NCBI GenBank assembly: GCA_002898315.1
Contig: BEHV01000005.1
Span: 8,859-72,858, forward strand
Length of the DNA: 64,000 nucleotides
Source: a bacterium HR19
GTDB lineage: Bacteria > Calescibacteriota > Calescibacteriia > Calescibacteriales > Calescibacteriaceae
Direction: 5' to 3'
Shown here in pieces: positions 24,794-55,884 of the stretch. Every line of letters starts with the position of its first letter. Positions within the stretch are counted from its first letter, which is position 1. The notes beneath the pieces were generated by a model. The model saw only the letters and a program-made list of their open reading frames with translations, did no database searches and was not told the DNA's origin. Both the position numbers and the translations under genes were made by a program.

Positions 24794-26656
24794 ATGAAAG
24801 AAAGAAAAAAAATCAGAATAAACAAAAAAATACTTTTTCTTGCAGGAAATGCGTTTATTCTCCTTTCAATTCTCGGAGCAGGTTGTGCGAAAAAACCGAA
24901 ATTCTACATCAAAGATAAGGTATCAGCTCCAGATGAAGAATCTCTATACTTTCAGGCAATATATGACATAAAAAGAGGAAGGTTACCCGAAGCAGAAGAA
25001 AAGTTGGAACTTCTCATTAAAGTTTCAGAGAAAGAAGGGAAAGAAATCGGATTTCAGCCATACTTTGACATAGCTAATCTGAAATACAGATTAGGCAAGA
25101 AATCCGAAGCGTCGGTATATGCAGAGAAAGCGGAGAAAAAAGCAAAAGATGAGAAAGATTTTGAAAGATTATACTCCCTATACATGCAGTTTGGTGAGAG
25201 AGAAAAAGCTTTGCAGGTTATAGAGAAAGCAAATGAGAAGTTTCCATCAGATGAGATGGTTTTCAGAACACTTATAATTGAGCTTATGAGAAGGGGAGCG
25301 ATAGATAAAGCTATATCAAGAGCAAAAAAATACACAGAAGTTAATCCCACAGACCCAGATGGTTTCATAATATACGGCAATCTTCTCAAATTTAAAGGAG
25401 AAAACGACCTTGCTGCTCAACAATTTGAAAAAGCTCTATCTCTTGGTTTCTACAATGAACAGCTTATTTCTGAACTTTTTGAAACCTACAAAGAAAAAGG
25501 AGAACTCCAAAAGGCCAAAAATATAATTGAAGAATACCTCCAGTATGAAGATTCTCTATCTTTGAAAAGGAAACTGGTTGATTTGCTCCTTGACATAGGA
25601 GAAAAAGAGAAAGCAATAAGCTATATGGAGCAAATCACAAAGAGCATTTCAGAGCCAGAGGTGATGATAGATTTTGCAAGAGTTCTTTTCAAAGCAGGAA
25701 AATATGAAGAAACTGTCTCACTTATAAACAGTATAGAAAGAGAGCTTGTCGGACAGCAGAAAGAAGTAGCAATATTACTCAAAGCTTATGCACTGAATGA
25801 ACTGAAAAAATACGAGGAATCAATAAAAGAATTTGAGAAAATAGATGAGACATCAAGCTTATACGATAACGCAATCGCAGGAAAAATAGATTCTCTAAAA
25901 GAACTCTCCCCGCAAAAAGCGATTGATTTTGGAGTAAGCATAACCCAGAAGGTTTTCTCCCCTGAAATAGCATACTCCATAGCATTCGCCATGAGAGAGA
26001 TAGAAGATTATGAGTCAGCTATACGATTTATTACAGAATCACAGAAGAAGCTCAAGGATAGCAAAGAACTCCTCTACGCTAAATCAATACTTCTTTACGA
26101 ATCAGGAAAGCTTGATGAAGCTTTGAAAGTTGCGGAGGAACTTCTGAACATTGACCCGAAAAATCCAAATTATCTGAACCTCAAAGCTTACTCAATTTGT
26201 GAGGTTGTGAGAGAATCAAAAGAAAAAAACGGTTATTTATCAGTTGAAGAGAAGCAAAAAATTCAGGAAGCCAAAAAGCTTGCAGAAGAAGCAATGGCAA
26301 AAAAACCAAACGACCCATATATCATAGATAGCCTCGGATGGTGCTACTTCGTAGAAGGAGAACTTGAAAAAGCAGAAGAGCTCATAAAGAAATCTTATGA
26401 GTTGAAAAATGATGACCCCGTTATTCTTGAACACATTGGAGATATACTCCTTGCTAAAAATCAAGTTGAAAAAGCATTTGAGATGTATAAAACCGCAATG
26501 GGCAAGAAACCCAAAGGATATGACAGAATAAGAATTCAGGCAAAATTAAGCAAACTTGAAAGAGAGGTGAAGGAAGAAAACCAAAAAACCCCACACAAAG
26601 AAAAAGGTAAAGGAAAAAGAAAATCTCCCGAGCAGAAAGAGATAATTCAAAATTGA
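24794..26656 (+). CDS. tetratricopeptide-repeat lipoprotein
   Basis: Lipobox LGAGC; many TPRs; PNDPYIIDSLGW...DPVILEHIGD. Confidence 0.85.
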   Translation: MKERKKIRINKKILFLAGNAFILLSILGAGCAKKPKFYIKDKVSAPDEESLYFQAIYDIKRGRLPEAEEKLELLIKVSEKEGKEIGFQPYFDIANLKYRLGKKSEASVYAEKAEKKAKDEKDFERLYSLYMQFGEREKALQVIEKANEKFPSDEMVFRTLIIELMRRGAIDKAISRAKKYTEVNPTDPDGFIIYGNLLKFKGENDLAAQQFEKALSLGFYNEQLISELFETYKEKGELQKAKNIIEEYLQYEDSLSLKRKLVDLLLDIGEKEKAISYMEQITKSISEPEVMIDFARVLFKAGKYEETVSLINSIERELVGQQKEVAILLKAYALNELKKYEESIKEFEKIDETSSLYDNAIAGKIDSLKELSPQKAIDFGVSITQKVFSPEIAYSIAFAMREIEDYESAIRFITESQKKLKDSKELLYAKSILLYESGKLDEALKVAEELLNIDPKNPNYLNLKAYSICEVVRESKEKNGYLSVEEKQKIQEAKKLAEEAMAKKPNDPYIIDSLGWCYFVEGELEKAEELIKKSYELKNDDPVILEHIGDILLAKNQVEKAFEMYKTAMGKKPKGYDRIRIQAKLSKLEREVKEENQKTPHKEKGKGKRKSPEQKEIIQN

Positions 26657-26722
26657 TAGAATCTGGAACAAAAATTGACATAAAACAAAAAACTCCAAAC
26701 AGAGAAATTTTCACAAATAAAA

Positions 26723-27877
26723 ATGGAAAATATAAGAGATTTCAACGAGCTGATTTTTGACCCACTGGTATGTGTAAAATGTGGATACTGTAAATCTACC
26801 TGTCCAACATATCTTGCAACAGGAGATGAAAGGTTCTCTCCACGAGGTCGTCTTATCATATCATACAAAATCTTGAAAGAAAACCTTGATATAAAAGAAA
26901 CTTTTGACTTTTACAGAGACCTTGATACATGTTCAAAATGCACAGAGTGTGAAAGAACCTGTCCGCTTGAGCTGAAACCATATATTACTTTTGTAAGGAC
27001 GAAAAACAAAACTTTGTTTGGCAAATTAGAAACACTGATGGCGAAAATCACCATAAGTAGTAAAACATTTTTCTCTTTATCTTTCAAAATTATATCAAAG
27101 ACGAGAGGAGCCAAACTGCCACAAGATAATGAACCTTCAAGTAGTTTTCAAGAAAAATTCACAGGAGTTCCTCAAAGTTCTGAGAAAGTTCTTTTTTTCC
27201 CTTCATGTTTTGGATATACTATATTTTCACCAGTAGCAAAAAAAGCAGAGATGCTCTTGAAAAAATTAGGAGTGAATTTCGTGGTTTCGCCAGCAAGTTT
27301 CTCATGCTGTTCGGCTCCTATACTGCTTTCAGGAGATATGGACTCTTTCAGAAAGAGAGCAGAAAAATTCGTTCGCAAACTTAAAAAAGATGCCGAAGGA
27401 GCAGAAGTGAAAAAAATTCTTGTAAATGGTCCAACATGCACATGGGTAATAAAAAACTTTATGAAAGATGAATTAGAAAAAGAGTTCAGTCATGAAATAG
27501 AAGTAAAAGAGGTGTCAGATTTTATCCTGAGCAAAATCACCGATATGCTGAAAGGCAGAAAGATTTCAGATGGTGATGAGATCATATTACATAAACCCTG
27601 CCATAGCGAAGTAAGAATGGGAGAAAAACTCAGAGAACTGGGATTTCAAGTGAAAGAGACAGATTTTTACTGCTGTGGATTCGGTGGTTCAATGTTTTTC
27701 AAAAACTGGTCAATGTCTGATGAACTCCTCAGAAAAACACTCGGAAGTTTTGAGCAGGATATAAAAAATGGTGCAAAGATATTTTCAAACTCTCCGGGAT
27801 GTGTTCTCCAGCTCTCAAGGTCTGCAAGTTCAGACCATATACTATCTCTGATCTCACAATATCTCAACAAGATATAA
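26723..27877 (+). CDS. Fe-S oxidoreductase, GlcF-like (2x[4Fe-4S] + CCG domains)
   Basis: CVKCGYCKSTCPTY, SPRGR, CSKCTECERTCP, SCCSAP, YCCGFGG. Confidence 0.85.
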   Translation: MENIRDFNELIFDPLVCVKCGYCKSTCPTYLATGDERFSPRGRLIISYKILKENLDIKETFDFYRDLDTCSKCTECERTCPLELKPYITFVRTKNKTLFGKLETLMAKITISSKTFFSLSFKIISKTRGAKLPQDNEPSSSFQEKFTGVPQSSEKVLFFPSCFGYTIFSPVAKKAEMLLKKLGVNFVVSPASFSCCSAPILLSGDMDSFRKRAEKFVRKLKKDAEGAEVKKILVNGPTCTWVIKNFMKDELEKEFSHEIEVKEVSDFILSKITDMLKGRKISDGDEIILHKPCHSEVRMGEKLRELGFQVKETDFYCCGFGGSMFFKNWSMSDELLRKTLGSFEQDIKNGAKIFSNSPGCVLQLSRSASSDHILSLISQYLNKI

Positions 27878-33679: not shown

Positions 33680-36600
33680 ATGTCGGGAAAGAAAAACGAT
33701 AATTCCAGAAAGGTCGGTTGTCATATATCTTATCAAAATTTCTCGTTCTACTTTTTCTGCTTTCTATTTCTTATTTTTTCCTGTGCAAGAGGTACTGGAA
33801 AACCCACTCCGGAGTTCAGGATACTTGATTTCTTCCCGCCGAGCGGATTTCAACTTCCCCTCACTTCCATTCCGCTGAAAATTTCCATTTCGTTCTCAAA
33901 AATCTTAGATGAAACCACTATATCAGATGACACAATAAAGGTGTTCAAAGACGGAGTAGAGATAAAAAAGCAGATAAAGATCATAAATAGACAGAAAGTA
34001 GAACTAACCCCTGACATAACAGGTTTGGGAAAATATAAGGTCTTCGTCTCAAAAAAGGTAAAGAGCATAATAGGACAAGAACTTCAAGACGATTTCTCTT
34101 GGGAATTTTTGGTTGTTGAAGGTCAAATCTCTGTTATTCCTCCACCTACTCTCCCCCCACTCGTAAAAAAAATATACCCCCCACACCTTTCAGTTGTCAG
34201 ACGAGACACAATTATATACGCTGTCTTTTCAAAAAGAATAGTTAATATAAACTCCTCAAACTTTTTCCTCCAAGATATAAACGGGAAGATAATTGATTCA
34301 ACAATAACTTACATAGAAGAAGAAAACATTGCTATTTTGAAGCCAAAAAATCTTCTTGAACCTTCTCAAACATATATAGTAACTTTACGAGAAGACATAA
34401 CCGCTTTTGATGGAGAAAAATTAGGAGTAAATGTTGTATGGCTTTTCAGCACTTTTGGAATCTCCGCAGATACAAATCCGCCAGAAGTTATCTTCATCTC
34501 TCCACCCCCAAACTCCACAGGAGTTCCACTGAACACCAAAATAATAATCCTCTTTTCAGAAGATATAGATACATCAGATATAACATCAAGAGTAAATATT
34601 CTTGAAGGAGGTATAACTCCCGTAAATTATACTTTCAACTATGACCCTACTTTCTATCAGCTCACAATTTCTCCTCTAAATCTTCTAAAACCAAACACTC
34701 AGTACACAGCTAAGGTGAGAGTAAAAGACAAGAGCGGAAACGAAATGGTTCAAGATTTTATATCTGAATTCTCAACAGGAACAGCCACAGGTGTAGGAGG
34801 AGATAATATCCCCCCACAGCTCCTTGAAATATACATAGATAACAGAAAGGTAAATTTACCCGAACAGCCCACAAATGTGTCTTTGAACCCAACAATAAAG
34901 CTTGTATTCTCTAAACCTATAAACCCCTCAACGGTAAATTCATCTTCACTTTTCATAAGCGATTCCGCAAATAAAATAAACTCAAACATAACATTCAGCA
35001 CAGACCTGAGAACAGTTTCAATATCTCCGATTTCTTCTTTACAGCTTGGAAAAACATATTGGGTATACATAACAGGAGATATAAAGGACCTCGCAGGAAA
35101 TTCCCTTTCTAATCCCATCACATTTTCATTTACGACCCAATCTAACCCTTCAATTATCATAACTTCACCTTCGCCAAACTCATATATAAAAGGTATAATG
35201 AATGTTGAGGTGAGTTTTTCTGGAAACTTCCAGAAACTTGAACTCTGGATAAATTCATTGAGAAGACAGACAGCTACTCCTCCGTTCTCATCTCCCTTTG
35301 TTTTTCAAGAAGACACACGATTACACGCAGATGGACAAAAAGCAATAAGAGTTATAGGATACTTTTCAGGTGGCTCGACATCTTACTCTGTAAATGTGAC
35401 ATTTGACAATACCCCTCCCATAGCTTCAATTCAGAGTCCGCCAGAAGGTGGAGTGCTAACGGGCTCATCTGCGGAAATAACATCAGTAGTAAATGATTCC
35501 CCTGACGGAATCCTGAAAAGAGTTGAGCTCTATGTAGATGGAATATTTCATTCTATCCTTACGAGTCCGACAATCTCCCCAAATGTCTTCAAATTTAACC
35601 TCAATACGCTCTCTTACTCAGATGGCACACATACGATAGAGATAAAAGCAGAAGACCTCGCCGGGAACAGAGCTTCATCTGGAATAAGAAACATAAGAAT
35701 AGATAACACACCTCCGACAGGAAATTTCGTAAGTCCCTTACCGGAAGCAGTGGTGGGCGGATTGGTTACGCTTGAAGTAAATGCGTCAGATAACATAGGA
35801 ATTAAAAAAGTTGAGTTCTTTGTGAATAGTGTAAGAGTATGCGATGCAGAAACACTGATTTGCGAAAAAACATCTCCTCCTTACAAAATAGTATGGGATT
35901 CCACATCTATATCCTCTTTTCCATCAGCTTCTATTACAGCTTCTGTTGAAGACCTTGCTGGATTTAAAACAGTGTTCGGAATTTCCGTAACCATAGATAA
36001 TGTCTCCCCTTCTGTTGGTATAATAACTCCTCCGTCTGGCTCTTACATAAGGGGTTCAACACCGGTTCAGATTGCCAATTTTGATGCAAACGGAGTGACA
36101 GCGCTATCAATCTTTATAGATAGCGTAAAACTCTTTGATGTCTCAAATCCGTCAAATCCATACACCTTTATCTTAAACACATCACTTTATTCAGATGGAA
36201 CTCATTCAATAAGAGGAGTAGCATACGATAAAGCCGGGAATTCAAGTTTCTCTGAGATATTTGTTGTGATAGATAATACTCCACCGTCGGGAAGTATATC
36301 GGCTCCACCTTTGGGCTTTTTCACAAACTCAAATGGTCTGACAGTTCAGGTTTCAGCATCAGATAACATCCTCTTGAACAGAGTTGAGGTATATATAGAT
36401 GGGAATCTTGCAGGAACAGATAATTCGTCTCCCTATTCCATCGCAGCAGATATTTCTCTGCTTTTGGAAGGCACTCACAGCATAACAGCTGCGATATTTG
36501 ACGAAGCGGGAAACAGCTTTGTTACTCCTTCTCCAACAACTTTTATAATAGATAGAACTCCTCCAACCGCCTTCTTCGCTGAACCTTCAACTGATTCGGT

Positions 36601-39148
36601 TTTACAAGGAACAGTTACAATAAGAGTATCGGGAGTTGATTTGAACAGGGTTTCTTCTATAAGCATAACTGCTGGTTCAACTTCTCTTGGTTCATGCACG
36701 ATAAACGCTCCTTCTGGAACATGCATCAAAAACTGGGCTACAATGGGAGATGCAAACGATGTCGTTTTAACAGGGGTCGTCATAGACTCAGCCGGAAATC
36801 AAGAAGTAACTCAGATTGTTGTGATGGTAGATAATATCGCACCGTCAGCTTCTATTACATCTCCTACCGCGTTTTATCTTACTTGTCCTACAAATACTGT
36901 TATAGGAGTTTCAACTTCTGACATCAACACAATCACAGCAGTTGTTATAAGAGTAGTAGATGTAGCAACATCTTCAGAGCTTGCGAACATAGTATTTAAT
37001 ATATCACCTCCACAAACTCCTGTAAATGTGTTTGCAACTCTAACCCCAGTTCAGTGTGGTTCAGATGGTCTAAAGAGAATTTTTGCGACTTCCTACGATA
37101 AAGGTGGCAAAGCAAACACGCAAGTAAGAGATTTCACGGTTGATAATACACCTCCGGGGATAAGTATAATCTTTCCTTCTGCAAGCGAATGCGTTTCAAA
37201 TAGCCCTTCTGGTTCAACCAGAGTTGTATTTTCGGCGTGTGATAACGGATTTTTGCAGAAAGTAAGCTTCTATGTTGATACAACTCTGATAAACACAATA
37301 TCTCCGAACTCGTCAATTTCCTGCTCTACTCCGCAGACATACCAGATACCATGGAATTCATCATCTTTTTCAGATGGTCCTCACACAATTCAAATAATAG
37401 GTATTGACCTTGCAGGAAATACCAATACTCAAAGCGTACCGATATTAGTAGATAACACACCTCCTACTGTTACAATAATGTCACCACCCAACAACTCATC
37501 AATAAACTCTCCGATAGTTGTGAATGTAAATCTCGGGGATACAGGATGTGCTCCACCATCATATCCCTTCAAAAAAGTTGAGTATCAGATAAAGGTTTCT
37601 GATGTAGGTTCATTTATCTCATCAACGCGAGATTGCTCTACTTCGCGAAGAATTCCTTGCGTAGATACAAATGTGGGTTCCGGGACATCAACATTCCCTT
37701 GGGATGCAACAGAGTACTGTGGATTTTTCATCGTAAAAGCGATAGGCTACGATTACGCAGGAAATAAAGCAGAGGCAACATCAACTGTGAAGATTCAGCC
37801 ACCGGGATGCCCCATAGAGAAGTCGTGGAGTCCATTTAATGCAGTTGGCTCAATAAGTACAACACCAATTTTGAGAGACCTTGAAGGAGATGGAAAGAAA
37901 GAGATAATATTTGGAACATCTACCGGAAGAGTTTATGCTGTATCGCAAGCGACCGCAATTCAAAACTCAGATGCGGTGGGAAGCCCGATAAAAGGTGTGT
38001 TTTTAGAAATTCTTGTATCAGCTGTGAGAAAGCTTGTTTTCGGCACAGGAGACCCAGACAGAAAAATAAGAGTTCTCAACCTCACAGCTCCCTTCCTTTC
38101 ATCTTTTTCATCTCAAAGCACAGAAACCGCTGTTTTCTCTCCACCATCTACAATCTTCACAGATGGTTCTACCACAGTTGTTCTGGTTGGGGACCTCAAA
38201 GGGAGAGTTACAGCTTACGAGGTTGGATCATCTGGATTTACTTTCAGGCAGTGCTATCCAGCGGGAGCGCCTCTTGAATGCGGATTGAACAGCGCTCCAA
38301 TATCAGATATAAACGGAGACCTTCAACCAGATATAGTTTCCTCTCCGCTTCCCGTAGACACAAATTGTGACGGAAGCTATGACACAATAATAGTTACCGC
38401 ATCTGATGGATACATAACTGCGATAAACCTTGCAACACGGACTAAAATATGGACTATCTACACTGGAACCTCACTTGATTCATCTCCAATTCTGGCTGAC
38501 TTCGGAAACGATTGCAACTTTGAAATATTGGTTGCAACCAAAGGAGGAGCGCTCTACTGCGTCAGCGAAACCGGTGGATTGTGTTCAGGATGGACATCAC
38601 AGTATTTCACAGCAGGAGCTCAGATAATCTCTCCACCCGCAGTTACAGATGTTGATTCCTGTCTCCCAGCAATAGGGGACACAAATCAGGAGATAATATT
38701 TGGCAACACGGGAGGAAATTTATATATTCTCTCTCAATCGGGGAACCTGAAATCACAGCGGAATCTCGGCTCATTTATAGTATCTACTCCTGCAATAGCA
38801 GACATAAACGGAGACGGCTGTGGAGAGATATTTGTTGCAACAGGTGATGGTAAAGTTCACGGGTTTTATCTTGTAAATAGGGCTGGTCAGCTCTATCCCG
38901 AATATATAACAGGATTCCCCAAATCAACGGGTGGAAACATATCTTCAAATCCTATCTCTCCGATAGTATGTGATATAGATGGTGATTCAAGTTTAGACCT
39001 CATAATAGGAAATGATTCCGGCTCTTTGAGAATTTATGATCTTGGAACTTCGGGCGGTACAGCGAAGTGGATACCGGGCGGTAGGTTCTGTGCTCCAAAT
39101 GCATTCGGATGCCAGACAAGATGGGAAACTTCAATCTGTGGTTGGTAA
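33680..39148 (+). CDS. large surface lipoprotein: SbsA-type Ig domains, tandem bacterial Ig domains, C-terminal FG-GAP/VCBS propeller
   Basis: Lipobox FLIFSC; recurring D(L/K)AGN...DNTPP units; DLEGDG, DINGDL, DINGDG, DIDGD motifs; Ser/Thr/Pro-rich. Confidence 0.85.
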   Translation: MSGKKNDNSRKVGCHISYQNFSFYFFCFLFLIFSCARGTGKPTPEFRILDFFPPSGFQLPLTSIPLKISISFSKILDETTISDDTIKVFKDGVEIKKQIKIINRQKVELTPDITGLGKYKVFVSKKVKSIIGQELQDDFSWEFLVVEGQISVIPPPTLPPLVKKIYPPHLSVVRRDTIIYAVFSKRIVNINSSNFFLQDINGKIIDSTITYIEEENIAILKPKNLLEPSQTYIVTLREDITAFDGEKLGVNVVWLFSTFGISADTNPPEVIFISPPPNSTGVPLNTKIIILFSEDIDTSDITSRVNILEGGITPVNYTFNYDPTFYQLTISPLNLLKPNTQYTAKVRVKDKSGNEMVQDFISEFSTGTATGVGGDNIPPQLLEIYIDNRKVNLPEQPTNVSLNPTIKLVFSKPINPSTVNSSSLFISDSANKINSNITFSTDLRTVSISPISSLQLGKTYWVYITGDIKDLAGNSLSNPITFSFTTQSNPSIIITSPSPNSYIKGIMNVEVSFSGNFQKLELWINSLRRQTATPPFSSPFVFQEDTRLHADGQKAIRVIGYFSGGSTSYSVNVTFDNTPPIASIQSPPEGGVLTGSSAEITSVVNDSPDGILKRVELYVDGIFHSILTSPTISPNVFKFNLNTLSYSDGTHTIEIKAEDLAGNRASSGIRNIRIDNTPPTGNFVSPLPEAVVGGLVTLEVNASDNIGIKKVEFFVNSVRVCDAETLICEKTSPPYKIVWDSTSISSFPSASITASVEDLAGFKTVFGISVTIDNVSPSVGIITPPSGSYIRGSTPVQIANFDANGVTALSIFIDSVKLFDVSNPSNPYTFILNTSLYSDGTHSIRGVAYDKAGNSSFSEIFVVIDNTPPSGSISAPPLGFFTNSNGLTVQVSASDNILLNRVEVYIDGNLAGTDNSSPYSIAADISLLLEGTHSITAAIFDEAGNSFVTPSPTTFIIDRTPPTAFFAEPSTDSVLQGTVTIRVSGVDLNRVSSISITAGSTSLGSCTINAPSGTCIKNWATMGDANDVVLTGVVIDSAGNQEVTQIVVMVDNIAPSASITSPTAFYLTCPTNTVIGVSTSDINTITAVVIRVVDVATSSELANIVFNISPPQTPVNVFATLTPVQCGSDGLKRIFATSYDKGGKANTQVRDFTVDNTPPGISIIFPSASECVSNSPSGSTRVVFSACDNGFLQKVSFYVDTTLINTISPNSSISCSTPQTYQIPWNSSSFSDGPHTIQIIGIDLAGNTNTQSVPILVDNTPPTVTIMSPPNNSSINSPIVVNVNLGDTGCAPPSYPFKKVEYQIKVSDVGSFISSTRDCSTSRRIPCVDTNVGSGTSTFPWDATEYCGFFIVKAIGYDYAGNKAEATSTVKIQPPGCPIEKSWSPFNAVGSISTTPILRDLEGDGKKEIIFGTSTGRVYAVSQATAIQNSDAVGSPIKGVFLEILVSAVRKLVFGTGDPDRKIRVLNLTAPFLSSFSSQSTETAVFSPPSTIFTDGSTTVVLVGDLKGRVTAYEVGSSGFTFRQCYPAGAPLECGLNSAPISDINGDLQPDIVSSPLPVDTNCDGSYDTIIVTASDGYITAINLATRTKIWTIYTGTSLDSSPILADFGNDCNFEILVATKGGALYCVSETGGLCSGWTSQYFTAGAQIISPPAVTDVDSCLPAIGDTNQEIIFGNTGGNLYILSQSGNLKSQRNLGSFIVSTPAIADINGDGCGEIFVATGDGKVHGFYLVNRAGQLYPEYITGFPKSTGGNISSNPISPIVCDIDGDSSLDLIIGNDSGSLRIYDLGTSGGTAKWIPGGRFCAPNAFGCQTRWETSICGW

Positions 39149-41462: not shown

Positions 41463-42560
41463 TTATTCTGAAATTTTAATTTGGACTCTTGGATATTTTC
41501 TTTCTACTGCTGACCGGAACGCCTCATTTATTTTCTCAAAATCAAAGACATAAAACATCTTCCCAAAAGGAATTTTATCTTTGTTCCTTCTTATGAAGTT
41601 CTGAGAAAGAAGGATTGTATGCGGATGATAAAGTGAAACACCTTTTAAAGTTAGGTTTTCTCCTATCCAAACAGACGGGTCTGCGTCAAATTTCTGCTTT
41701 GGATTGATAGCTCCCATAACAAGGTATCTTCCGCCTCTTCGCATGTATTTTATACCTTCCGCAACAGCTTTTGGGTTTCCTGCGAGTTCAACAACAACAT
41801 CTGCACCACCTTCTGTAATCTCTTTAACTTTGGCTATTCTTCCTCTGAAATCTTCATCAAGTTTTATAGTGTAGTCGGCTCCGAACTCTTTTGCAAGTTC
41901 AAGACGCGATTCAATCGCATCAACCACTATAACTTTTCCTGCTCCCATATCTTTCGCTACAGCAACTGCTAAAAGTCCAAGCCCTCCCGCCCCCTGTATA
42001 ACAACACTATCTCCGTACCCCAAACCTATCTCTCTGAGTCCAAACAAAACCTGTGATAATGCACAGTTTATCGCTGCTGATATATCTAATGGAATATCAT
42101 CGTCTAACTTATAGAATTTTTGTCCGGGTCTTACAAAGTAAAAGTCAGCAAAACCTCCGACAAAAAACGGGGGTTTTTCTGCCTCTCTGAGAACTGAAAC
42201 CAAGCTTTGAAAGCACGCATACTCTTGACCAAGAGAACAGTTCTTACATCTTCCACACCCTCTGAAATAACACACAGAAACCAGATCTCCTTCCGATATA
42301 CTTTTGCCGATGCTGTCCTTTTCAACTCCTTTTCCAAGTTTTTCTATTCTCCCCACAAACTCGTGTCCAAGAACAATAGGATAAAAAAGCCCGCCGAACG
42401 CCTTGAAAGCTTCACCAGAAAACATGTGTATATCTGAACCACATATATTTGCTCTCAAAACTCTCACCACAACTTCTCCTTCCTTCGGGTCAGGGACTTC
42501 AAACTCCTTTATCTCAAGCGGTTTCCCAGTATCCCTGAATATGCTAACCCTTCCTTTCAT
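41463..42560 (-). CDS. zinc-dependent medium-chain alcohol dehydrogenase
   Basis: ICGSD, LGHE, CGRCKNC..C, INCA, GAGGLG; start MKGRV at 42560 has a GGAGG RBS. Confidence 0.9.
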   Translation of the reverse strand: MKGRVSIFRDTGKPLEIKEFEVPDPKEGEVVVRVLRANICGSDIHMFSGEAFKAFGGLFYPIVLGHEFVGRIEKLGKGVEKDSIGKSISEGDLVSVCYFRGCGRCKNCSLGQEYACFQSLVSVLREAEKPPFFVGGFADFYFVRPGQKFYKLDDDIPLDISAAINCALSQVLFGLREIGLGYGDSVVIQGAGGLGLLAVAVAKDMGAGKVIVVDAIESRLELAKEFGADYTIKLDEDFRGRIAKVKEITEGGADVVVELAGNPKAVAEGIKYMRRGGRYLVMGAINPKQKFDADPSVWIGENLTLKGVSLYHPHTILLSQNFIRRNKDKIPFGKMFYVFDFEKINEAFRSAVERKYPRVQIKISE

Positions 42561-42582
42561 ACTCTTTTGAACCTCCCTAGAT

Positions 42583-43644
42583 TTACTGAATATATGGTAG
42601 AACTTTTTCAGCAAAGAGTTTCATTGATTTTTTGACAAGTTCAGTAGGCATAGCTCCCATATTAAAACCCCCTATGAACATCGTCACGCCTTGCTCTTTG
42701 AGCAAACTCATAATATCTTTTATCTTCTCAGGGTCTCCCCATGCACATGTTGTGTACTCAATATTGCCCGTGAGGACTTCAAAGTTTATCTCGTTTTCTT
42801 TTCCCGGCCATGGTTTATCTTTTGGCCATGTTTCCCTGAGCTTTCTTGCAAGAAGGTTATATAGATGTTCTCCCCCCTGAAAGAAAGCAAAAAGCGTTTT
42901 CATAAAGTATTTTTCGGCAAGCTCTCTCGCTTTCTTCAAGCTTCTGTCAACATATATCCACTTGAAAGCTATCTTTTCTGGCATATCCTGATTTCCCAAA
43001 CTTTCAGCTTCCCTTTTATAAAGATCAAACACGTGTTTTAGTTCATATATTGAAAATCCCGCGGCGGGGATAACATAAATCCCTCTTTCAGCAGCCCACT
43101 TTATCTGGTCATCTCTTGTTGTAGTTATGTATATGGGCGGATGTGGTTTTTGGTATGGCTTTGGTTGAATCTCAACATCCTTTACTTTTATGAATTCTCC
43201 TTCGTATGAAACTTTTCCATTTATCCATACTTTCTGGCAGAACTCAATTGATTCTCTCATCATCTTCCAGTTATTTTTTATGTCATATCCGAAAGGAAGG
43301 AACTCGTATGCTCTATAACCCGAACCTAATGAGAAAACGACCCTGCCTTCTGAGAACTGGTCAAGCATAGCTACTCTTTCTGCAAGGCGAATTGGCTCAT
43401 TAAGTGGGGAAACGATCACCATCGGCCAGAGTTTCATTTTTTTAGTCCTCGCTGCAACCCACGATAAAAAGTCAAGGGTGTCGGGCATTATTCCATAGTG
43501 TTCTGCAAAGTGATGTTCAGCGGGGCAAACAGCATAGAAACCGATTTTCTCCGCAAATACCGCTTCCTCAACTGCCTCTTTATAAGCTTGGCTCGGAGTT
43601 TTCTCACCAAGCGTCTCAAAAAGATAAAAAGCTCCAACCTTCAT
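42583..43644 (-). CDS. luciferase-like (LLM) flavin-dependent monooxygenase/oxidoreductase
   Basis: AEHHF, PIRLAERVAMLDQFSEGR, GSGYRAYEF, PKPYQKPHPPI, SMKLFAEKVLP. Confidence 0.9.
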   Translation of the reverse strand: MKVGAFYLFETLGEKTPSQAYKEAVEEAVFAEKIGFYAVCPAEHHFAEHYGIMPDTLDFLSWVAARTKKMKLWPMVIVSPLNEPIRLAERVAMLDQFSEGRVVFSLGSGYRAYEFLPFGYDIKNNWKMMRESIEFCQKVWINGKVSYEGEFIKVKDVEIQPKPYQKPHPPIYITTTRDDQIKWAAERGIYVIPAAGFSIYELKHVFDLYKREAESLGNQDMPEKIAFKWIYVDRSLKKARELAEKYFMKTLFAFFQGGEHLYNLLARKLRETWPKDKPWPGKENEINFEVLTGNIEYTTCAWGDPEKIKDIMSLLKEQGVTMFIGGFNMGAMPTELVKKSMKLFAEKVLPYIQ

Positions 43645-43787
43645 AACGACTCAAAATTAAATCATAAAGTTAAAATTTACACTTTATACAAGAATTTTTA
43701 CCATGAACCAAACAGAAAAAATTTCCCCATAAAAAATTTTCCCATCTGGACAGAAATTTGAAAAAATCACATTCAAACTTGAAAAAA

Positions 43788-44333
43788 CTAAGCTGGCTTG
43801 AAATCTGGACAGGAAACCTGAAGCGTCTCTGCTGAAAGTTTTTTCTTCAAAAACAAGCAATACATATCGTGAAAATAAACACACGAAAAACACATCTTCT
43901 GCGGAGAAATAAGCCCTTTTTCTTGCATCAGCTTTGCAAGATTCATGAGTAAAACAAGAAACTGATGTTTCTCACTCCTTCTGAGGTGTGAAATTGACTC
44001 CGAAAAAACCGAATACCAGTTCAAACTTTTTGCTAACTCTCTCCCAGCATTTGTGAGAGAAATCATCTTGAACCTTCTGTCGGTTTTTCCCTCGTAAATG
44101 ATTATAAGTTTTTTTCGTGAAAGAGCTTTCAGTGCAGAATTACATGCAGAATGCTTGACATTAACCTCACTTACAACCTCCTTTATACTTGCTTCCCCTT
44201 TCCTCAGAAGGTATGTGATTATCTTAGCTTGAAGAGGGCTTAAATTGTTTTGAATCGCAATATCTCGCACAACCTTCTCAAAAGCAATCCATAACCTCTC
44301 CAAAATAAAAAGAACCTTCCATTCTATATCCAT
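43788..44333 (-). CDS. MarR-family transcriptional regulator with C-terminal 4-Cys domain
   Basis: LSPLQAKII, wHTH, DRR wing, LTNAGR; C-terminal MCFSCVYF..YC...SCPDF. Confidence 0.85.
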   Translation of the reverse strand: MDIEWKVLFILERLWIAFEKVVRDIAIQNNLSPLQAKIITYLLRKGEASIKEVVSEVNVKHSACNSALKALSRKKLIIIYEGKTDRRFKMISLTNAGRELAKSLNWYSVFSESISHLRRSEKHQFLVLLMNLAKLMQEKGLISPQKMCFSCVYFHDMYCLFLKKKLSAETLQVSCPDFKPA

Positions 44334-44355
44334 AAAAATTTCCCCAAACAAATTT

Positions 44356-45045
44356 CTATTTATTTATGGAATCAACGGAATTCAAAAGTACACAAACATT
44401 ACTCCAAATACTACCATCTTTTTCTCTCACTATCTTTTCAATATCGCTTGCTATCTCATACGAATTCATCTCAACAGGAAACATAAGTTCAGCGTAGCCC
44501 CTATCATCTACCAAAACCGCATAGCTTGAGTGCTCTATTTCCCCATCTCCTGTAACCACAGCCTCTATGCCAAGAGCACTTGCTACTTTATTTAACTCTT
44601 TTTTTGGAAGTAATTTCCATGAAAAATTCTCATTAAAACTCTTCACATACTTTCCCATTCTCTCGGGAGTGTCGTTTTCAGGGTCAAGTCCAACCATAAC
44701 GACCCTGACTATTCTCCGAGTTTTGTCATCAAGTAAAGAATAAGCATCTGCTAACTTTTTCATCATAATAGAGCAAACACTGCGACAACCTGTGTATCCA
44801 AAATACAAAATCAAGAATTTCCCCGAGTATTCATCAAAATAACTTATCTTTTTTCTTTCGGCAAACTTAAAACCATTCAGTTTTCTATCGCAATATGAAC
44901 TTTTATAGAACTTCGCAAGTGAGAAAAAGAAGAACAGAAAAGCTCCCCCCAGAAAGAGGAAAAGGAAAATATTTTTAAACACATCTTTTTTCCGCAAATG
45001 TTTTTCTCTCTCTATGTTTTTCCGTTTTATGAATATCATAAGCAA
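44356..45045 (-). CDS. SCO1/SenC family copper chaperone
   Basis: TM anchor, YFGYTGCRSVC (CxxxC), DPENDTPE, IEHSS His ligand. Confidence 0.9.
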   Translation of the reverse strand: MLMIFIKRKNIEREKHLRKKDVFKNIFLFLFLGGAFLFFFFSLAKFYKSSYCDRKLNGFKFAERKKISYFDEYSGKFLILYFGYTGCRSVCSIMMKKLADAYSLLDDKTRRIVRVVMVGLDPENDTPERMGKYVKSFNENFSWKLLPKKELNKVASALGIEAVVTGDGEIEHSSYAVLVDDRGYAELMFPVEMNSYEIASDIEKIVREKDGSIWSNVCVLLNSVDSINK

Positions 45046-45077
45046 TCTCTCTCCATCTGGGGGGAGCTGTATATGTT

Positions 45078-45500
45078 TTATGGTATGACAGAGAACGAAC
45101 CGGGAAGATGGATGTTTTTCGGATGTAGCTTACACCATATCGTATATGAGCCGGGCTTTGATGCCTTGAACTTTACTTCCTTTGTTTCCTTTGCTTTCAG
45201 TGTTGTATCAACATCATATCCCTCAATAGAGTAGTTCTCACTTATAGGTGATTCATTAACTATCTTGATATTCACAGTATCTCCCACTCTCGCAACGAGG
45301 TTTTCGGGTTCATTCAGCACATTGAACTGCCTCACATTTTTTATCATCACTCCTTCTATCGTGGCTTCGGGGATTGTGGTATCGTATGCTCTGATATAAA
45401 CGGTGAAGTTAAGTTCTTTTCCTCTTTCCGCTGATGCCGATAGCCAGAGACCTGCTATAATTAATCCAACACCTAAAAACAATAGTGCTACCTTGTTCAT
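45078..45500 (-). CDS. ncyA: nitrosocyanin (red copper cupredoxin)
   Basis: Signal peptide ending ASA; AYDTTIPE, FNVLNEPE, SPISE (Glu ligand), TIWCKLHPKNIHLPG (Cys/His/His ligands) match nitrosocyanin as recalled; AAGGAGG RBS. Confidence 0.88.
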   Translation of the reverse strand: MNKVALLFLGVGLIIAGLWLSASAERGKELNFTVYIRAYDTTIPEATIEGVMIKNVRQFNVLNEPENLVARVGDTVNIKIVNESPISENYSIEGYDVDTTLKAKETKEVKFKASKPGSYTIWCKLHPKNIHLPGSFSVIP

Positions 45501-45526
45501 AAGTTTGCACCTCCTTATTTATTTTT

Positions 45527-45559
45527 AACTTCAAAATAAATATTTACAACTTCAAAATA
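45527..45559 (-). promoter_or_regulatory. candidate operator: 12-bp direct repeat TATTTTGAAGTT, 21-bp period, upstream of ncyA
   Basis: AACTTCAAAATA at 45527-45538 and 45548-45559 on the + strand. Confidence 0.45.
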
Positions 45560-45647
45560 TTTTCACAAAAAACAAAAAATTTCCCTCCTGAATTCTCTTC
45601 TTAACTAAAAAACTTCTCCTAAAAAATAAAATATAAGATGGAAGCTT

Positions 45648-46415
45648 GTGAACTTCACTATGGATAACGAGATTATAATAAAAGTAGAGAATCTGTGGAA
45701 ATACTTTGACGGGAAGCCCGTTCTCAAAAACATAAATGCAGAGATAGAAAAAGGGAAAATAACGGTGGTTATGGGAAGGTCCGGATGTGGAAAAACTGTT
45801 CTTATGAAAAATATAGTGGGGATTTTAAAACCAGAAAAAGGGAAAATTATTTTTGAAGGGCGAGTTATAAACGAATTATCTGGTGAGGAAAAACTTGAAA
45901 TTATTCAGAATTTTGGTTTTCTATTTCAGAACTCTGCTCTATTTGACTGGCTTACAGTAGAAGAAAACATCGCATTTCCTCTCGTTGAGATAAACAGAAT
46001 AAAAGACAAAAACATAATAAAAGAGAAGGTATATCAGTTAATTGAAATTATAGGGTTAAAGGGGCATGAGAAAAAATATCCTGCCGAGCTATCTGGTGGG
46101 ATGCAAAAAAGGACTGCACTTGCGAGAGCTATAATTCACAACCCCAAAATAGTCATTTTAGATGAACCAACTTCTGGAATTGATCCGGCGACTTCTTCTT
46201 CTATTGAAGAGCTAATACTTGACCTCAAAAAAAGATTTGGCTCAACATTTCTTGTTATAACGCACGACATAAAAAGCGCAATAAGACTCGCAGATAAAAT
46301 AATATTTATGAAAGACGGAGAAATAATATGGCAGGGAAAACCGCAGGAGATAGTAAATCAAAAAGAAGAAGAAATAAGAATTTTTCTCAAACGTCTTGAA
46401 TTCTCGCAAGATTGA
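45648..46415 (+). CDS. ABC transporter ATP-binding protein, MlaF/Mkl family
   Basis: GRSGCGKT, FQNSALFDWLTVEENI, PAELSGGMQKR, LDEPTSGIDP, ITHD. Confidence 0.85.
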   Translation: MNFTMDNEIIIKVENLWKYFDGKPVLKNINAEIEKGKITVVMGRSGCGKTVLMKNIVGILKPEKGKIIFEGRVINELSGEEKLEIIQNFGFLFQNSALFDWLTVEENIAFPLVEINRIKDKNIIKEKVYQLIEIIGLKGHEKKYPAELSGGMQKRTALARAIIHNPKIVILDEPTSGIDPATSSSIEELILDLKKRFGSTFLVITHDIKSAIRLADKIIFMKDGEIIWQGKPQEIVNQKEEEIRIFLKRLEFSQD

Positions 46416-46420
46416 AAAGA

Positions 46421-46852
46421 TCACCTTGATGAATTTAGCAGATCTTGATACCACTTTTTCAGTTCTTCTTCCGGAATTTCTTTTTTCAGGTGGGAGAGAA
46501 ATTCTGCCAAGATCTTTAACTCTTCATCACTCCCCTTCCACTTCACTTTATGTTTTCTTCCTTTTTCGTTTTCTATTTCCTTTTTGAGCCATTTTTGAAT
46601 CCATTCACTATCACGCCTCAAGCCAACTCCCGAATGATCTATTATTTTCCTTCCTTTGAGAAGAGATTCCTTTTGTGGTTCTATTCCTTCGGATTTTATG
46701 GAGTGGCATTTTGTACAGTTCTCCCGGGTGAAAAGTTCTTTACCATCATCACCCATCAGTTTCTCTATCAGAAGAAGAAAGAAAGATACACAAAAAATAA
46801 AAATATTAAGAGAGTGATATTTTTTGTTTCCCTTCCAGATATTCTGCATCAT
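46421..46852 (-). CDS. monoheme cytochrome c
   Basis: Hydrophobic leader, DGKELF...CTKCH heme motif, WIQKWL. Confidence 0.85.
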   Translation of the reverse strand: MMQNIWKGNKKYHSLNIFIFCVSFFLLLIEKLMGDDGKELFTRENCTKCHSIKSEGIEPQKESLLKGRKIIDHSGVGLRRDSEWIQKWLKKEIENEKGRKHKVKWKGSDEELKILAEFLSHLKKEIPEEELKKWYQDLLNSSR

Positions 46853-46947
46853 ATTGAATTTTTTTCCTATATGCGATATTTTTCTTTTTACAAATCTTTT
46901 CTGAAAAGCTCATAAAAATTATCTCTGTGAAAGTATGGAGTTTTCGG

Positions 46948-47439
46948 TTAATCTTTCATCTTCTCTATTATTCTTGCTATTATGTTTGTTGTTGAAAGTC
47001 CTTTGATGAGCTTTACTCTTACAATCTTCCCCCCTCTTGATTTCACTATATCTGCTCCAACTATCTTATCCTCTTCCCAGTCCTCACCTTTTACAAGAAC
47101 ATCTGGCTCTATCTTCTCTATAAGAGAAAGGGGGGTATCATCATCAAATGGTATAACATAATCTACTGCTTCTACTGATGCGACCACTATCATTCTCATC
47201 TCAAGCGGTAAGATTGGTCTTTTTTCACCTTTCAGGCGTCTTACAGATTGGTCAGAATTGATCCCAACAAAAAGTATATCTGCGTATTTTTTTGCCTCAA
47301 AGAATGTCTTTATATGTCCTGCATGTATTATATCAAAGCATCCGTTCGTAAATGCAATTGACTTTTTCTCACTCCTTATATTTTGCACAACCGAATCAAG
47401 TTTATCTAAGCTCAGTATTTTTTCCTCTGGGAACCTCAT
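46948..47439 (-). CDS. rfaE2: D-glycero-beta-D-manno-heptose 1-phosphate adenylyltransferase
   Basis: FTNGCFDIIHAGH, NSDQSVRRLKG, PDVLVKG, STTNII. Confidence 0.93.
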   Translation of the reverse strand: MRFPEEKILSLDKLDSVVQNIRSEKKSIAFTNGCFDIIHAGHIKTFFEAKKYADILFVGINSDQSVRRLKGEKRPILPLEMRMIVVASVEAVDYVIPFDDDTPLSLIEKIEPDVLVKGEDWEEDKIVGADIVKSRGGKIVRVKLIKGLSTTNIIARIIEKMKD

Positions 47440-48098
47440 ATATTTTTCAAAGCTGATTTTATATCTCTTTTTATATCTTGGAGGACTTTTTGTGGGGATT
47501 CAGAATATATAACTGGTCTCCCCACAACTATCATATCTACTTTTTCCTCTACTGCTTCTGATGGGGTCAGATATTCTTTGTGTTCATCTTGTGTTTGAGG
47601 CGAAATTCTTATTCCCGGAGAAATAACTTTGATTTTACCTTCAAGTTCAGATTTTATTTTTTTTGCAAATTTTGGTGGGGCTACGACATATGAAGCTTGC
47701 CACCCAAAAGCTCTCCGAGCCCTTTCTAAAATAACTTTCTCGTCGTAGTTTTCAGAGGTGAGCATAGTGACTCCTGCGATTTCGGCTTTGTGAATTTTAG
47801 CTTCCTCCACCGCTGACCTGAAAATTTCCTCTCCCGCAGATACATGGACTGTAAATATTTTAGCTCCGAAAGAGCAGAAGTTCTTTATGCTCCTTCTAAC
47901 AACAGATGGAATATCATAAAATTTCAGGTCTACAAATATTTCTTTTTCAAGGCACGATATTATCTCAAGAGAGACAATACCAATTGAAGACAGAGCAACA
48001 GGTCCTATTTTATATACATCAACATAATCTTTTGTGGCTTTGACTACATCTATGAATCTCTTTTTATCTTCTATGTCAAGGGCTAAACAAATCTTCAT
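47436..48098 (-). CDS. pyrF: orotidine 5'-phosphate decarboxylase
   Basis: LALD, DLKFYDIP, VTMLTS, PGIR, VVGRP. Confidence 0.93.
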   Translation of the reverse strand: MKICLALDIEDKKRFIDVVKATKDYVDVYKIGPVALSSIGIVSLEIISCLEKEIFVDLKFYDIPSVVRRSIKNFCSFGAKIFTVHVSAGEEIFRSAVEEAKIHKAEIAGVTMLTSENYDEKVILERARRAFGWQASYVVAPPKFAKKIKSELEGKIKVISPGIRISPQTQDEHKEYLTPSEAVEEKVDMIVVGRPVIYSESPQKVLQDIKRDIKSALKNI

Positions 48099-48100
48099 TT

Positions 48101-48469
48101 TTATTTATTTTCTCCGACCGGGTTAGCAGGTTGAGATTGAATTTGTTCTTGGTGATAAGAAGAAAGTTCTGTTTCAAGAGCTTTTATTTTTTCATCTCTC
48201 ATCTGGTTTTCTGCTTCAAGTTCTTCAATTTTCTTTTTCAATTTTTCAACTTCTCTTCCTCTGGAAAATGCCTTAACTTGGGATGGAACAGCCCTTAGGT
48301 ATCCTATGAGGAATCCAGCAGAAAATATAAGGAGAAACCAGATACCTATCGGCAATCCCCTTATTGTAATGTGAAAAATCTGGAGAGTAAGGGGTTGGGT
48401 AAATGAGTAATAATTTTGAATGAGCACAACAAAGACGGCTGCGAATATAACGAAGTATATTATTCCCAT
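48101..48469 (-). CDS. LapA-family membrane protein
   Basis: Start MGIIYF at 48469; two TM helices around a QN motif, coiled-coil tail; upstream of pyrF as is usual for lapA. Confidence 0.72.
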   Translation of the reverse strand: MGIIYFVIFAAVFVVLIQNYYSFTQPLTLQIFHITIRGLPIGIWFLLIFSAGFLIGYLRAVPSQVKAFSRGREVEKLKKKIEELEAENQMRDEKIKALETELSSYHQEQIQSQPANPVGENK

Positions 48470-48480
48470 CTTATCGGTAT

Positions 48481-48556
48481 TGGTCGGGGCGACCGGACTT
48501 GAACCGGCGACCTCCGGCTCCCGAAGCCGGCGCGCTACCACCTACGCTACGCCCCG
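48481..48556 (-). tRNA. tRNA-Pro(CGG)
   Basis: CGGGGCG/CGCCCCG acceptor stem, anticodon arm CCGGC-TTCGGGA-GCCGG, encoded CCA. Confidence 0.95.
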
Positions 48557-54741: not shown

Positions 54742-55494
54742 TTATTTTTTAAAGAACGGCGGGAGAACTTCAAGTTTATGCTTTACCCCTTTTTGACAAG
54801 CCAGAGCGAAAAAGTCAGCGCTTTTATCAAAAGAGTGATGGAAAAATCTGATGAAAACCGGTTTTAGTCGAAACTTGAAGAAGGTAGATAAAACCTCTCC
54901 TAACCTGTAAGATGGATACACTACAAAAACAAATCCTCTGTTTTTTACAAGACGTGAAGAAACTTCCGCAAAGGTTCTGAGGTTAAGAGTTATCTCCCAT
55001 TTAGCAATAGCATATTTATCTGATTTTTTTCCTTCTTCTGGGGGGATGTATGGTGGGTTTGAAACTATAATGTCAAAAGATTCTGGTCTGAAAGGATAAA
55101 ATCTTATATCACCGCAAACTGAAAAAGCTCTCACTCCATTACTCTGAAAGTTAAGGAGAGATAAATTTGACATAAGCTTATCTATATCTATGGCGAAGAA
55201 CTTATAGTTTTTCAATTCTCTTGCGAGCAAAAGTGTTATTATTCCACAACCAGCTCCTATATCAACACAGAACTTCACATTACTGCTCCTTTCTATATTT
55301 TCGTTTCTTTCCTCGGTTTCTTTTTCTATTTTCCTGATTATTTGAATAACAAACTCAGAGAGAAAAACAGAGTCATCTGAAAAGTGCCAACCCTCAATAG
55401 GTTGAAATATTCTGAGTCCTGATATACTTGTTTCAAATATTTGAGATGGGGAGAGATTGCCAGATAAGCCGGTTTCTGTGTTTTTGGGTATCAT
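54742..55494 (-). CDS. SAM-dependent N6-adenine methyltransferase, tRNA1(Val) m6A37 TrmN6/YfiC-like (start uncertain)
   Basis: IFQPIEGWHFSDDSVFL, DIGAGCG, IVSNPPY, AKWE; candidate starts ATG 55494 (inside rnpB) or GTG 55278. Confidence 0.8.
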   Translation of the reverse strand: MIPKNTETGLSGNLSPSQIFETSISGLRIFQPIEGWHFSDDSVFLSEFVIQIIRKIEKETEERNENIERSSNVKFCVDIGAGCGIITLLLARELKNYKFFAIDIDKLMSNLSLLNFQSNGVRAFSVCGDIRFYPFRPESFDIIVSNPPYIPPEEGKKSDKYAIAKWEITLNLRTFAEVSSRLVKNRGFVFVVYPSYRLGEVLSTFFKFRLKPVFIRFFHHSFDKSADFFALACQKGVKHKLEVLPPFFKK

Positions 55495-55884
55495 TACTCT
55501 AAGCGGCCTACCCGGGGGTAAATGGCGGTAAGGAGCGACCCGCAAGGAGAGAGAAGTGGAACAAGCTCAAAAACATTTTTATTTTTCTTCATCCTCTCTC
55601 TCCTTTCCCCCCTGCTTGGCCTTGCCCGGGGTGGGGTTTACCAAGCAAACCCGGTTGCCCGGGTTTCTGGTGCGCTCTTACCGCACCTTTTCACCCTTGC
55701 GGTATGTATGAAAATACATACCGCGGTATGTTTTCTGTGGCACTTTCCAGCACTCTCATGCCCCCGCTCCACCCTAACGAAAAATAGGGCTTAACGGGCA
55801 CCCCGCTCCTTATGGGACCGGACTTTCCTCACAGGGACTTCAAAAACGAAGTCCCTGCGCGATACCCTCTCGCAATCTCTCCCC
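55448..55884 (-). ncRNA. rnpB: RNase P RNA, bacterial type A, lacking P18
   Basis: GAGGAAAGTCCGG and ACAGAAACCGGCTTA (P4), AGTGCCACAGAAA, GGGTGAAAAGGTGCGGTAAGAGCGCACC, GGTAAACCCC, P1 GGGGAGAGATTGC/GCAATCTCTCCCC. Confidence 0.95.

Follow-up and report, generated by a model that had tools for sequence, protein, structure and literature searches.

Nitrosocyanin is a red copper protein thought special to ammonia-oxidising bacteria (AOB). The subject here is a gene for such a protein, ncyA, at positions 45078-45500 on the minus strand of a 64,000-nucleotide stretch of the genome of bacterium HR19 (the window, to which all coordinates refer unless a contig or locus is named). The host, a hot-spring bacterium of the Calescibacteriota, has a denitrification and aerobic gene set, and ammonia-oxidation genes are not detected in it. 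Read from its sequence, the gene is an intact nitrosocyanin orthologue, exported and of the red-copper type, binding copper through a Cys, two His and a Glu; its standing as a true orthologue is close to certain. It heads a cassette of ~2 kb, ncyA-sco-marR(Cys4), that is under strong purifying selection. Because a host that does not oxidise ammonia carries an intact copy, the job of NcyA probably does not depend on ammonia oxidation as such, and the best reading that we can infer would make it a periplasmic copper protein that handles nitric oxide (NO) in thermophiles respiring nitrogen oxides.

The protein and its copper site

The 140-residue translation of the open reading frame (ORF) at 45078-45500 (-) contains all four of the blocks that an earlier, sequence-only reading of this DNA had quoted for it (AYDTTIPE, FNVLNEPE, SPISE and TIWCKLHPKNIHLPG), and its copper loop, CKLHPKNIHLPG (C-K-L-H-P-K-N-I-H), is free of Met, as that reading had noted. 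The resemblance to Nitrosomonas europaea nitrosocyanin that it had put forward is real. A phmmer search of all PDB chains returns the nitrosocyanin entries 1IBY/1IBZ/1IC0 at E 5.7e-42, with a NirK as the second-best match at E 7.9e-4; the NCBIfam nitrosocyanin equivalog model TIGR03096 scores 166.3 bits on the protein and 165.7 bits in a scan of the genome, above its cut-off of 142.85 bits; and BLASTP aligns the protein with that of N. europaea (P0087) over 128 residues at 54% identity. The alignment with 1IBY is gapless, residues 29-139 falling on chain positions 1-111, and in that register E88, C123, H126 and H131 coincide with Glu60, Cys95, His98 and His103, all four of the ligands that the earlier reading had named. 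Their codons can be read in the DNA at 45237-45239 (E88), 45132-45134 (C123), 45123-45125 (H126) and 45108-45110 (H131), and the residues are invariant or nearly so among 20 NcyA homologues.

The fold tells the same family. The AlphaFold model (pLDDT 82.6) has a helix at residues 4-21 and long strands at 29-48 and 51-64, and combines a cupredoxin fold with the N-terminal beta-hairpin extension of the 1IBY type. Foldseek places 1IBY/1IC0/1IBZ at ranks 1-4 (E 5e-15, or about 1e-14; TMt 0.80-0.82; 58% identity), and the next match, at 2e-6, is about nine orders of magnitude weaker. Pfam sees a generic Cupredoxin_1 domain alone (a weak match, 39 bits); the NosZ C-terminus is a weak HMM match at 25-27 bits, and the blue-copper models fall far below their cut-offs (plastocyanin TIGR02656, 13.4 against 87.85; pseudoazurin TIGR02375, 15.4 against 109.85). 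The possibility that the best matches would prove to be generic cupredoxins has thus been tried by phmmer, TIGR03096, Foldseek and protein search, and all four lead to nitrosocyanin. With plastocyanin, pseudoazurin and the CuA domains of CoxB and the NosZ C-terminus the protein shares the cupredoxin fold and a C-terminal Cys/His loop; unlike the type 1 blue cupredoxins it lacks an axial Met and takes a Glu ligand from an inner strand, and it has one Cys where CuA has two.

Export to the periplasm, also part of the sequence-only reading, is predicted from the hydrophobic N-terminus, MNKVALLFLGVGLIIAGLWLSASA/ERGKE, which ends in SASA, and from the helix at 4-21 of the model. Judged by eye from the translation, residues 1-24 (45429-45500, minus strand) form a putative Sec signal peptide whose predicted cleavage site follows SASA. 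Among the homologues the N-termini vary and the mature part is conserved. The protein is accordingly like that of N. europaea in length class, identity (54-58%), its four copper ligands, its Met-free loop and secretion, whereas the host differs, being a non-proteobacterial thermophile without detected amoA, amoC or octahaem ORF. Small signatures also set the two sides apart: the clade of the window protein has ISEN, RQFNV and C(K/N)LHP in place of the ISEG, RAFNV and CQLHP of AOB.

The ncyA cassette

Two genes follow ncyA on the same strand. The nearer, at 44356-45045 (-), starts no more than 32 nt downstream of it and encodes a membrane-anchored copper chaperone of the SCO1/SenC type (PF02630, E 1.8e-20, 73.7 bits; cut-off 22.8). 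The two Cys of its CxxxC motif (C87, C91) and its His172 are invariant in five homologues that likewise follow ncyA. A predicted complex of NcyA with the soluble domain of this Sco has a score of 0.00, which counts neither way. The farther gene, at 43788-44351 (-), begins 4-22 nt beyond sco and encodes a winged-helix regulator of the MarR family (PF12802, 30.1 bits against a cut-off of 27) with a C-terminal CxxC...C...C (C154, C157, C165, C181). These four Cys align with those of the ncyA-adjacent regulators of Thermoflexus and of a Thermodesulfatator metagenome-assembled genome (MAG). The structural neighbours of the regulator in the protein Atlas are generic MarR clusters only (TM 0.8-0.95), and the Cys4 C-terminus is, from the sequence, an add-on to the MarR fold without a named family.

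A search for the Cys4-MarR family finds 296 proteins at E<=1e-5, with the CxxC...C...C motif in 120 of 120 among the matches listed. Because the family is far wider than ncyA, its member here is a general type of sensor recruited at the cassette. The subfamily (43788-44351; P0193-P0312) is uncharacterised; its proteins are ~205-209 residues long, carry the signature EMCWxCxFF...HHCAF.DAPL...ECPDF, and are common in Chloroflexota and found also in Armatimonadota and Acidobacteria. Two of its members are fused to glutaredoxin (P0277, P0289).

Upstream of ncyA, the region 45501-45647 (-) holds an inverted repeat, and part of it is closely kept in the sister MAG of the host genus (G003, which is also G007 of the carrier panel below, locus L003). 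A strong ribosome-binding site, AAGGAGGTG, precedes the gene, and the ~70 nt directly before its ATG are nearly identical in the two copies. The imperfect palindrome of 13 nt at 45516-45542 is a candidate operator, to judge from its sequence. A scan for promoters and terminators stays at chance level (8 promoters against 6.6 expected from shuffles, 2 terminators against 1.6).

The limits of the cassette emerge from a DNA search with window positions 41463-48541 (7,079 bases) against five relatives. G003 is colinear with all 7,079 bases around ncyA, at 87% identity. The other four (G001, G002, G004, G005) match the left flank only to query position 2224-2235, which marks the cassette border, and have other genes past it; the genes of the right flank, which encode an ABC ATPase and a cytochrome c, are at other places in the genomes of these cassette-less relatives. 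The cassette-specific stretch thus spans ~2 kb, roughly 43690-45673, and is present in two of the seven Calescibacteriota species genomes surveyed, all of one family: the host (G000) and G003. The earlier reading had allowed that the contig might be chimeric at this point; since G003 is colinear, the left flank is kept in four relatives and the GC content is uniform, it is not. Between the host and G003 the ratio of nonsynonymous to synonymous substitution (dN/dS) is 0.06 for ncyA (dS 0.67) and 0.11 for the regulator, and the cassette genes are on that ground maintained by selection. Composition gives no sign of recent transfer, the cassette genes having 35-41% GC within a window range of 37.5 +/- 3.3%. 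No tRNA or mobile-element gene adjoins the cassette; the nearest tRNA gene, for tRNA-Pro, is at 48481-48556.

The host and the other carriers

The host assembly is a MAG of 1,875,992 bases in 22 contigs, 82% complete and with 0.02% contamination. The AT-richness remarked on in the sequence-only reading holds assembly-wide (36.9% GC; 35.9-38.3% on each of the 22 contigs), and the placement by EF-Tu that it had proposed puts the host in Calescibacteriota (Calescamantes): the gene at 2978-4180 (-) encodes a protein 86-92% identical to those of 'Candidatus Calescibacterium sp.', a genus that NCBI assigns to Candidatus Calescibacteriota, the next named group being Thermodesulfobacteria at 78-79%. 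The cassette is present in a single public DNA run, a hot springs metagenome that may be the source sample. The IVYWREL fraction over 1,412 long ORFs is 0.421, which by a formula of Zeldovich and colleagues would suggest growth near 60 C.

Absence of amo and hao, claimed earlier for the window, extends to the assembly, within its 82% completeness. Neither the AMO model (PF02461) nor the AmoC model (PF04896) finds anything at E<=0.01, and amoA is also missing from the sister genome G003, which has the same cassette. The multihaem model PF13447 has no match in the assembly, a result that is uninformative since the control gave none either; in its place as a probe for HAO, CxxCH motifs were counted over the 5,174 ORFs of at least 60 residues. 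No ORF exceeds five CxxCH motifs, so no HAO-like octahaem protein is assembled; the search did not extend to amoB, cycAB or a dedicated HAO model. On the evidence of amoA, amoC and CxxCH counts, the combination of amoCAB with hao that would make ncyA a marker of ammonia oxidation is lacking here.

What the assembly does have is the equipment of a denitrifier. The genome search recommended for nosZ and nirK finds clade II NosZ together with NirS; NirK was not found. NirS, the cytochrome cd1 nitrite reductase (PF02239, E 3.8e-128), is on contig C20 with nirN-, nirJ- and nirF-like neighbours. The NosZ is of the Sec-type clade II (TIGR04246, 866 bits against a cut-off of 625), in a cluster with nosD-, nosF- and nosY-like genes and a c7-type trihaem cytochrome (TIGR04257), on the same contig as ncyA. 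A gene for an A-family oxidase lies on contig C16. A ba3-like (B-family) haem-copper enzyme is encoded on contig C12 at 25798-27471 (-) (L094:5799-7472; T. thermophilus ba3, E 4e-52), with a CuA-type subunit II, a Sco-like gene and a cytochrome b/4Fe-4S fusion as neighbours. It has GHPAQQ where T. thermophilus ba3 has GHPIVY, and since these align, the cross-linked Tyr is replaced by Gln. B-family relatives that have CuA and lack the active-site Tyr are described as bearing the signature of NO reductases (PMC11214002), and the C12 enzyme is by its sequence a candidate for a B-family-derived NO reductase. The published Calescamantes genomes are likewise described as those of heterotrophs with nirS and nosZ (PMC4791363, PMC5877337).

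Relatives of the protein are few. Of 282 candidates from a word-indexed search, 264 reach E<=0.001, the top named matches being three entries called 'nitrosocyanin [candidate division WOR-3 bacterium]', followed by Nitrosomonas, Nitrosospira, Nitrosovibrio and Nitrosococcus. An exhaustive search of 1.84 billion 50%-identity representatives yields six proteins at E<=1e-10 and 72 at 1e-3, the list passing after four nitrosocyanin-like representatives to generic cupredoxin domains. A 'nitrosocyanin family' has been reported in 15% of copper-using bacteria (PMC2147054); given the six proteins at E<=1e-10, that figure, as it appears there, was set aside as resting on a loose definition of cupredoxins. 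In a scan of one genome per species, 70 of the 80 NcyA loci belong to Pseudomonadota, nearly all of them Nitrosomonadaceae. The other ten, which with the window make 11 non-AOB loci, are L003 (G003), L004, L005 and L049 (WOR-3), L007 (Hydrothermia), L006, L008 (a Thermodesulfatator MAG, on a 2.3-kb contig), L077 and L078 (Thermoflexus) and L076 (a contig binned as Bacteroidota). The last, of 1,174 bases and 61% GC, carries an NcyA and the start of a next ORF that almost match those of Candidatus Thermoflexus japonica (L078), and is, on this resemblance, probably a Thermoflexus contig in the wrong bin.

In a tree of 95 rows and 141 columns, unrooted in effect and with its bootstrap short of full settling, all 70 proteobacterial rows and two further proteins fall on one side of a branch supported at 98/90 and recovered in 100% of 200 bootstrap trees, and the 23 other rows fall on the opposite side. 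The window protein pairs with L003 (100/88) within an 11-row group (99/82) that includes the Thermodesulfatator sequence, and its gene is not nested among those of AOB. The tree called for in the earlier reading therefore keeps the protein within the nitrosocyanin family, though outside its proteobacterial (AOB) clade. Rooting by the distant cupredoxins P0131 and P0132 was tried and rejected (branch lengths of 5-10, the outgroup not monophyletic); the outgroups being too long to root the tree, it carries no direction of transfer. By these sequences, the window NcyA belongs to a non-proteobacterial lineage scattered thinly among thermophilic N2O reducers.

Members of this lineage vary in detail. 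The WOR-3 and Hydrothermia proteins (P0005, P0007, P0014; L004-L007, L049) are in the same non-AOB clade at 57-66% identity, and their loci likewise have sco after ncyA, in amoA-free hosts with clade II NosZ; they differ in being of another phylum, in that no Cys4-MarR gene was found beside ncyA, in that most lack NirS and, in one WOR-3 subclade, in a lipobox (LYGC) that replaces the plain signal peptide of the window protein. Lipobox-like ends of signal peptides (LYGC, VASC, FAAC) occur in L006, L049 and P0014 of that subclade and in L076-L078 of Thermoflexus, and these proteins, unlike those of the window and of AOB, may from their N-termini be lipid-anchored. Single copies depart from the copper site or its surroundings: Thermoflexus sp. 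L077:5527-5964 has NIRLRG (His103->Arg) in a genome without NosZ, the WOR-3 protein P0014 has LYPKN (His98->Tyr), and the NcyA of L049:10001-10393 has an in-frame deletion of 11 residues after NVR.

The partners of ncyA also separate the two sides of the family. A sco gene or fragment follows ncyA at six of the 11 non-AOB loci (the window, L003, L004, L005, L006, L049), the contigs of L008 and L076 stopping just downstream of ncyA, and at one of the 70 AOB loci (L041). In that case, Nitrosomonas sp. UBA8640, ncyA (L041:39-401) is followed by sco (520-1146), and the same MAG has a second ncyA (L030). The Cys4-MarR gene adjoins ncyA at five of the 11 non-AOB loci, in three phyla (the window, L003, L077, L078, L008), and at none of the 70 AOB loci at E<=1e-3.

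Traits of the carriers were surveyed in a panel of ten non-AOB genomes with N. europaea as control, G076 being added for some traits (n=11). None of the ten has amoA, which was found in the control at E 1.1e-115. Clade II NosZ is present in eight of the ten and not in the control (nine of 11 overall), haem-copper oxidases are present in ten of 11, NirS in two of the ten (G000 and G007; two of 11 overall) and NirK, above cut-off, in one of 11. In Calescibacteriota, clade II NosZ is found in all seven genomes. Among 272 genomes of WOR-3, the phylum of G008, NcyA is found in six (five above cut-off) and clade II NosZ in 20, and all six NcyA carriers have NosZ; a naive Fisher test, which ignores kinship, gives 7e-8.

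Two further features of the window lie apart from the cassette. A gene at 33680-39148 (+) encodes a protein of 1822 residues in which numerous bacterial Ig-like domains (Big_7, Big_5, Big_3_3) accompany a beta-propeller/FG-GAP region at the C-terminus; this may be the large surface protein earlier labelled BpsA. A class A RNase P RNA is at 55449-55879 (-), at 225 bits, and two mechanically called ORFs overlap it: that at 55522-55794, being wholly inside the RNA gene, is probably no gene, and the start of that at 54742-55545 is doubtful.

Possible function and its meaning

In AOB, NcyA is among the most abundant proteins (PMC5960693), described as equal to AMO and HAO in amount and as still unproven in function (PMC6478695, PMC5960693, PMC13746201). 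It has been called the 'most compelling candidate' for the NO oxidoreductase of these bacteria (PMC6478695); red-copper models are reported to oxidise NO to nitrite, and electron transfer is listed among its roles (PMC13746201). The N. europaea protein is described as having a Glu ligand, an open water position and a potential of +85 mV, with a red colour from a band at ~390 nm and a tetragonal electron paramagnetic resonance signal (PMC13746201).

The suggestion of the sequence-only reading that NcyA may have a role outside nitrification is supported; what lay beyond that reading is that the host is a NirS/NosZ denitrifier and that ncyA shares a cassette with sco and a regulator gene. The mechanism that we propose is as follows. 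NcyA would be exported by Sec, and the membrane-anchored Sco, co-transcribed with it, would load it with copper. In the periplasm it would bind NO, or interconvert NO and nitrite, at the open, water-bound copper site, which is the reaction suggested for the NcyA of ammonia oxidisers; the source of the NO would be the host's own NirS or nitrifiers nearby. NcyA would shield NO-sensitive copper enzymes such as NosZ and/or pass the electron from NO to the respiratory chain, and the Cys4 MarR would set its expression on a redox, metal or NO signal. That NcyA stands outside any pathway of ammonia oxidation in this bacterium is very probable. A part in handling NO, rather than plain electron carriage or copper handling, is put forward more tentatively, at somewhat short of an even chance. 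The explanation as a whole (a true NcyA, in a denitrifier that does not oxidise ammonia, in a cassette, with the periplasmic NO-handling mechanism that we infer) stands at about even.

The cupredoxin fold, the monohaem cytochrome c gene 0.9 kb upstream of ncyA (46421-46852), and the frequency of haem-copper oxidases (ten of 11) and NosZ (nine of 11) in the non-AOB hosts would also suit a protein that, like the blue cupredoxins, shuttles single electrons from the cytochrome bc/c pool to NosZ, the ba3-like CuA subunit or the A-family oxidase, and this role is among those listed for NcyA (PMC13746201). We nevertheless hold plain electron carriage to be unlikely. The Glu ligand, open water position and +85 mV potential described for the N. 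europaea protein differ from those of dedicated carriers (PMC13746201), and the nos cluster brings its own c7-type trihaem cytochrome. The upstream cytochrome c is not a member of the cassette, since relatives that lack ncyA keep that gene elsewhere, and NosZ works without NcyA in this phylum, since ncyA is found in two and NosZ in all of the seven genomes. A different use of the same neighbourhood would be copper handling, with NcyA and Sco buffering periplasmic copper, or delivering it for the assembly of CuA and CuZ, under a metal-sensing MarR. In two phyla the gene directly after ncyA is of the SCO1/SenC type and keeps its CxxxC...His site, the four Cys of the regulator are invariant and the hosts are rich in copper enzymes; yet the protein has one rigid, fully liganded copper site of redox type and 50-60% identity to the AOB protein, whose rank among the most abundant proteins of AOB (PMC5960693) is untypical of a chaperone. 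The adjacency is more simply viewed as Sco serving NcyA, and in this phylum five of the seven genomes manage to mature NosZ and oxidases though they lack the cassette. Copper handling is, on balance, improbable.

Far harder to credit is a host that oxidises ammonia or hydroxylamine after all, with NcyA in its AOB role and the genes unassembled or too divergent to be found. An assembly 82% complete, a PF13447 control that failed and searches that did not include amoB or a dedicated HAO model leave some space for it. Against it are the lack of amoA and amoC, the lack of any ORF with more than five CxxCH motifs, the absence of amoA from all ten non-AOB NcyA genomes under a control that worked (E 1.1e-115), and the published description of Calescamantes as heterotrophs with nirS and nosZ (PMC4791363, PMC5877337).

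Several points weigh against the NO-handling role itself. It would be carried over from a proposal for AOB that is itself unproven. In the host, ncyA is 65 kb from the nos cluster and nirS is on a different contig; the genome is 82% complete, and no RNA sequencing runs containing the cassette are listed. An operon with Sco and a possible metal-sensing regulator fits copper handling equally well. The association of NcyA with NosZ is weak as statistics: the Fisher value overstates the case because the WOR-3 carriers look clustered and may be few related lineages, and in the host phylum the link is uninformative because NosZ is universal there. Two carriers, G012 (a 1.2-Mb MAG) and G014 (the Thermoflexus whose NcyA has His103->Arg), lack NosZ. 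With NirS in two and NirK in one of the 11 carriers, most would need an outside source of NO.

The bare existence of homologues outside AOB is already on record, because databases automatically label the WOR-3 copies nitrosocyanin; the window gene adds to a known family a member in an unexpected host and an unexpected operon. The nitrosocyanin literature searched, supplements apart, contains no co-mention of WOR-3 or of Thermoflexus, and within the same body of text nitrosocyanin, nosZ and clade II come together in a soil review alone. This gene could appear in the supplementary tables of genes that accompany PMC5877337 and PMC4791363.

The enzyme that turns NO into nitrite in nitrification is missing, and NcyA is described as the leading candidate for it (PMC6478695, PMC5960693, PMC13746201). 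A conserved orthologue, kept by selection in makers and consumers of nitrogen oxides, separates NcyA from ammonia oxidation and narrows the context shared by its hosts to NO, N2O and copper respiration. The cassette also supplies experimental handles: a probably thermostable protein, a dedicated Sco partner and a dedicated regulator. It is conceivable, if rather doubtful, that NcyA is not an ammonia-oxidation protein at all but a mobile periplasmic module for oxidising or buffering NO, consisting of ncyA and its own Sco loader, common to ammonia oxidisers and to thermophilic N2O- and NO-respiring heterotrophs of at least four phyla, with AOB as one recipient and not the origin. If that were true, N2O reducers of hot springs could live beside NO-leaking nitrifiers, or with their own NirS, and have their NosZ protected or even gain an electron from NO.

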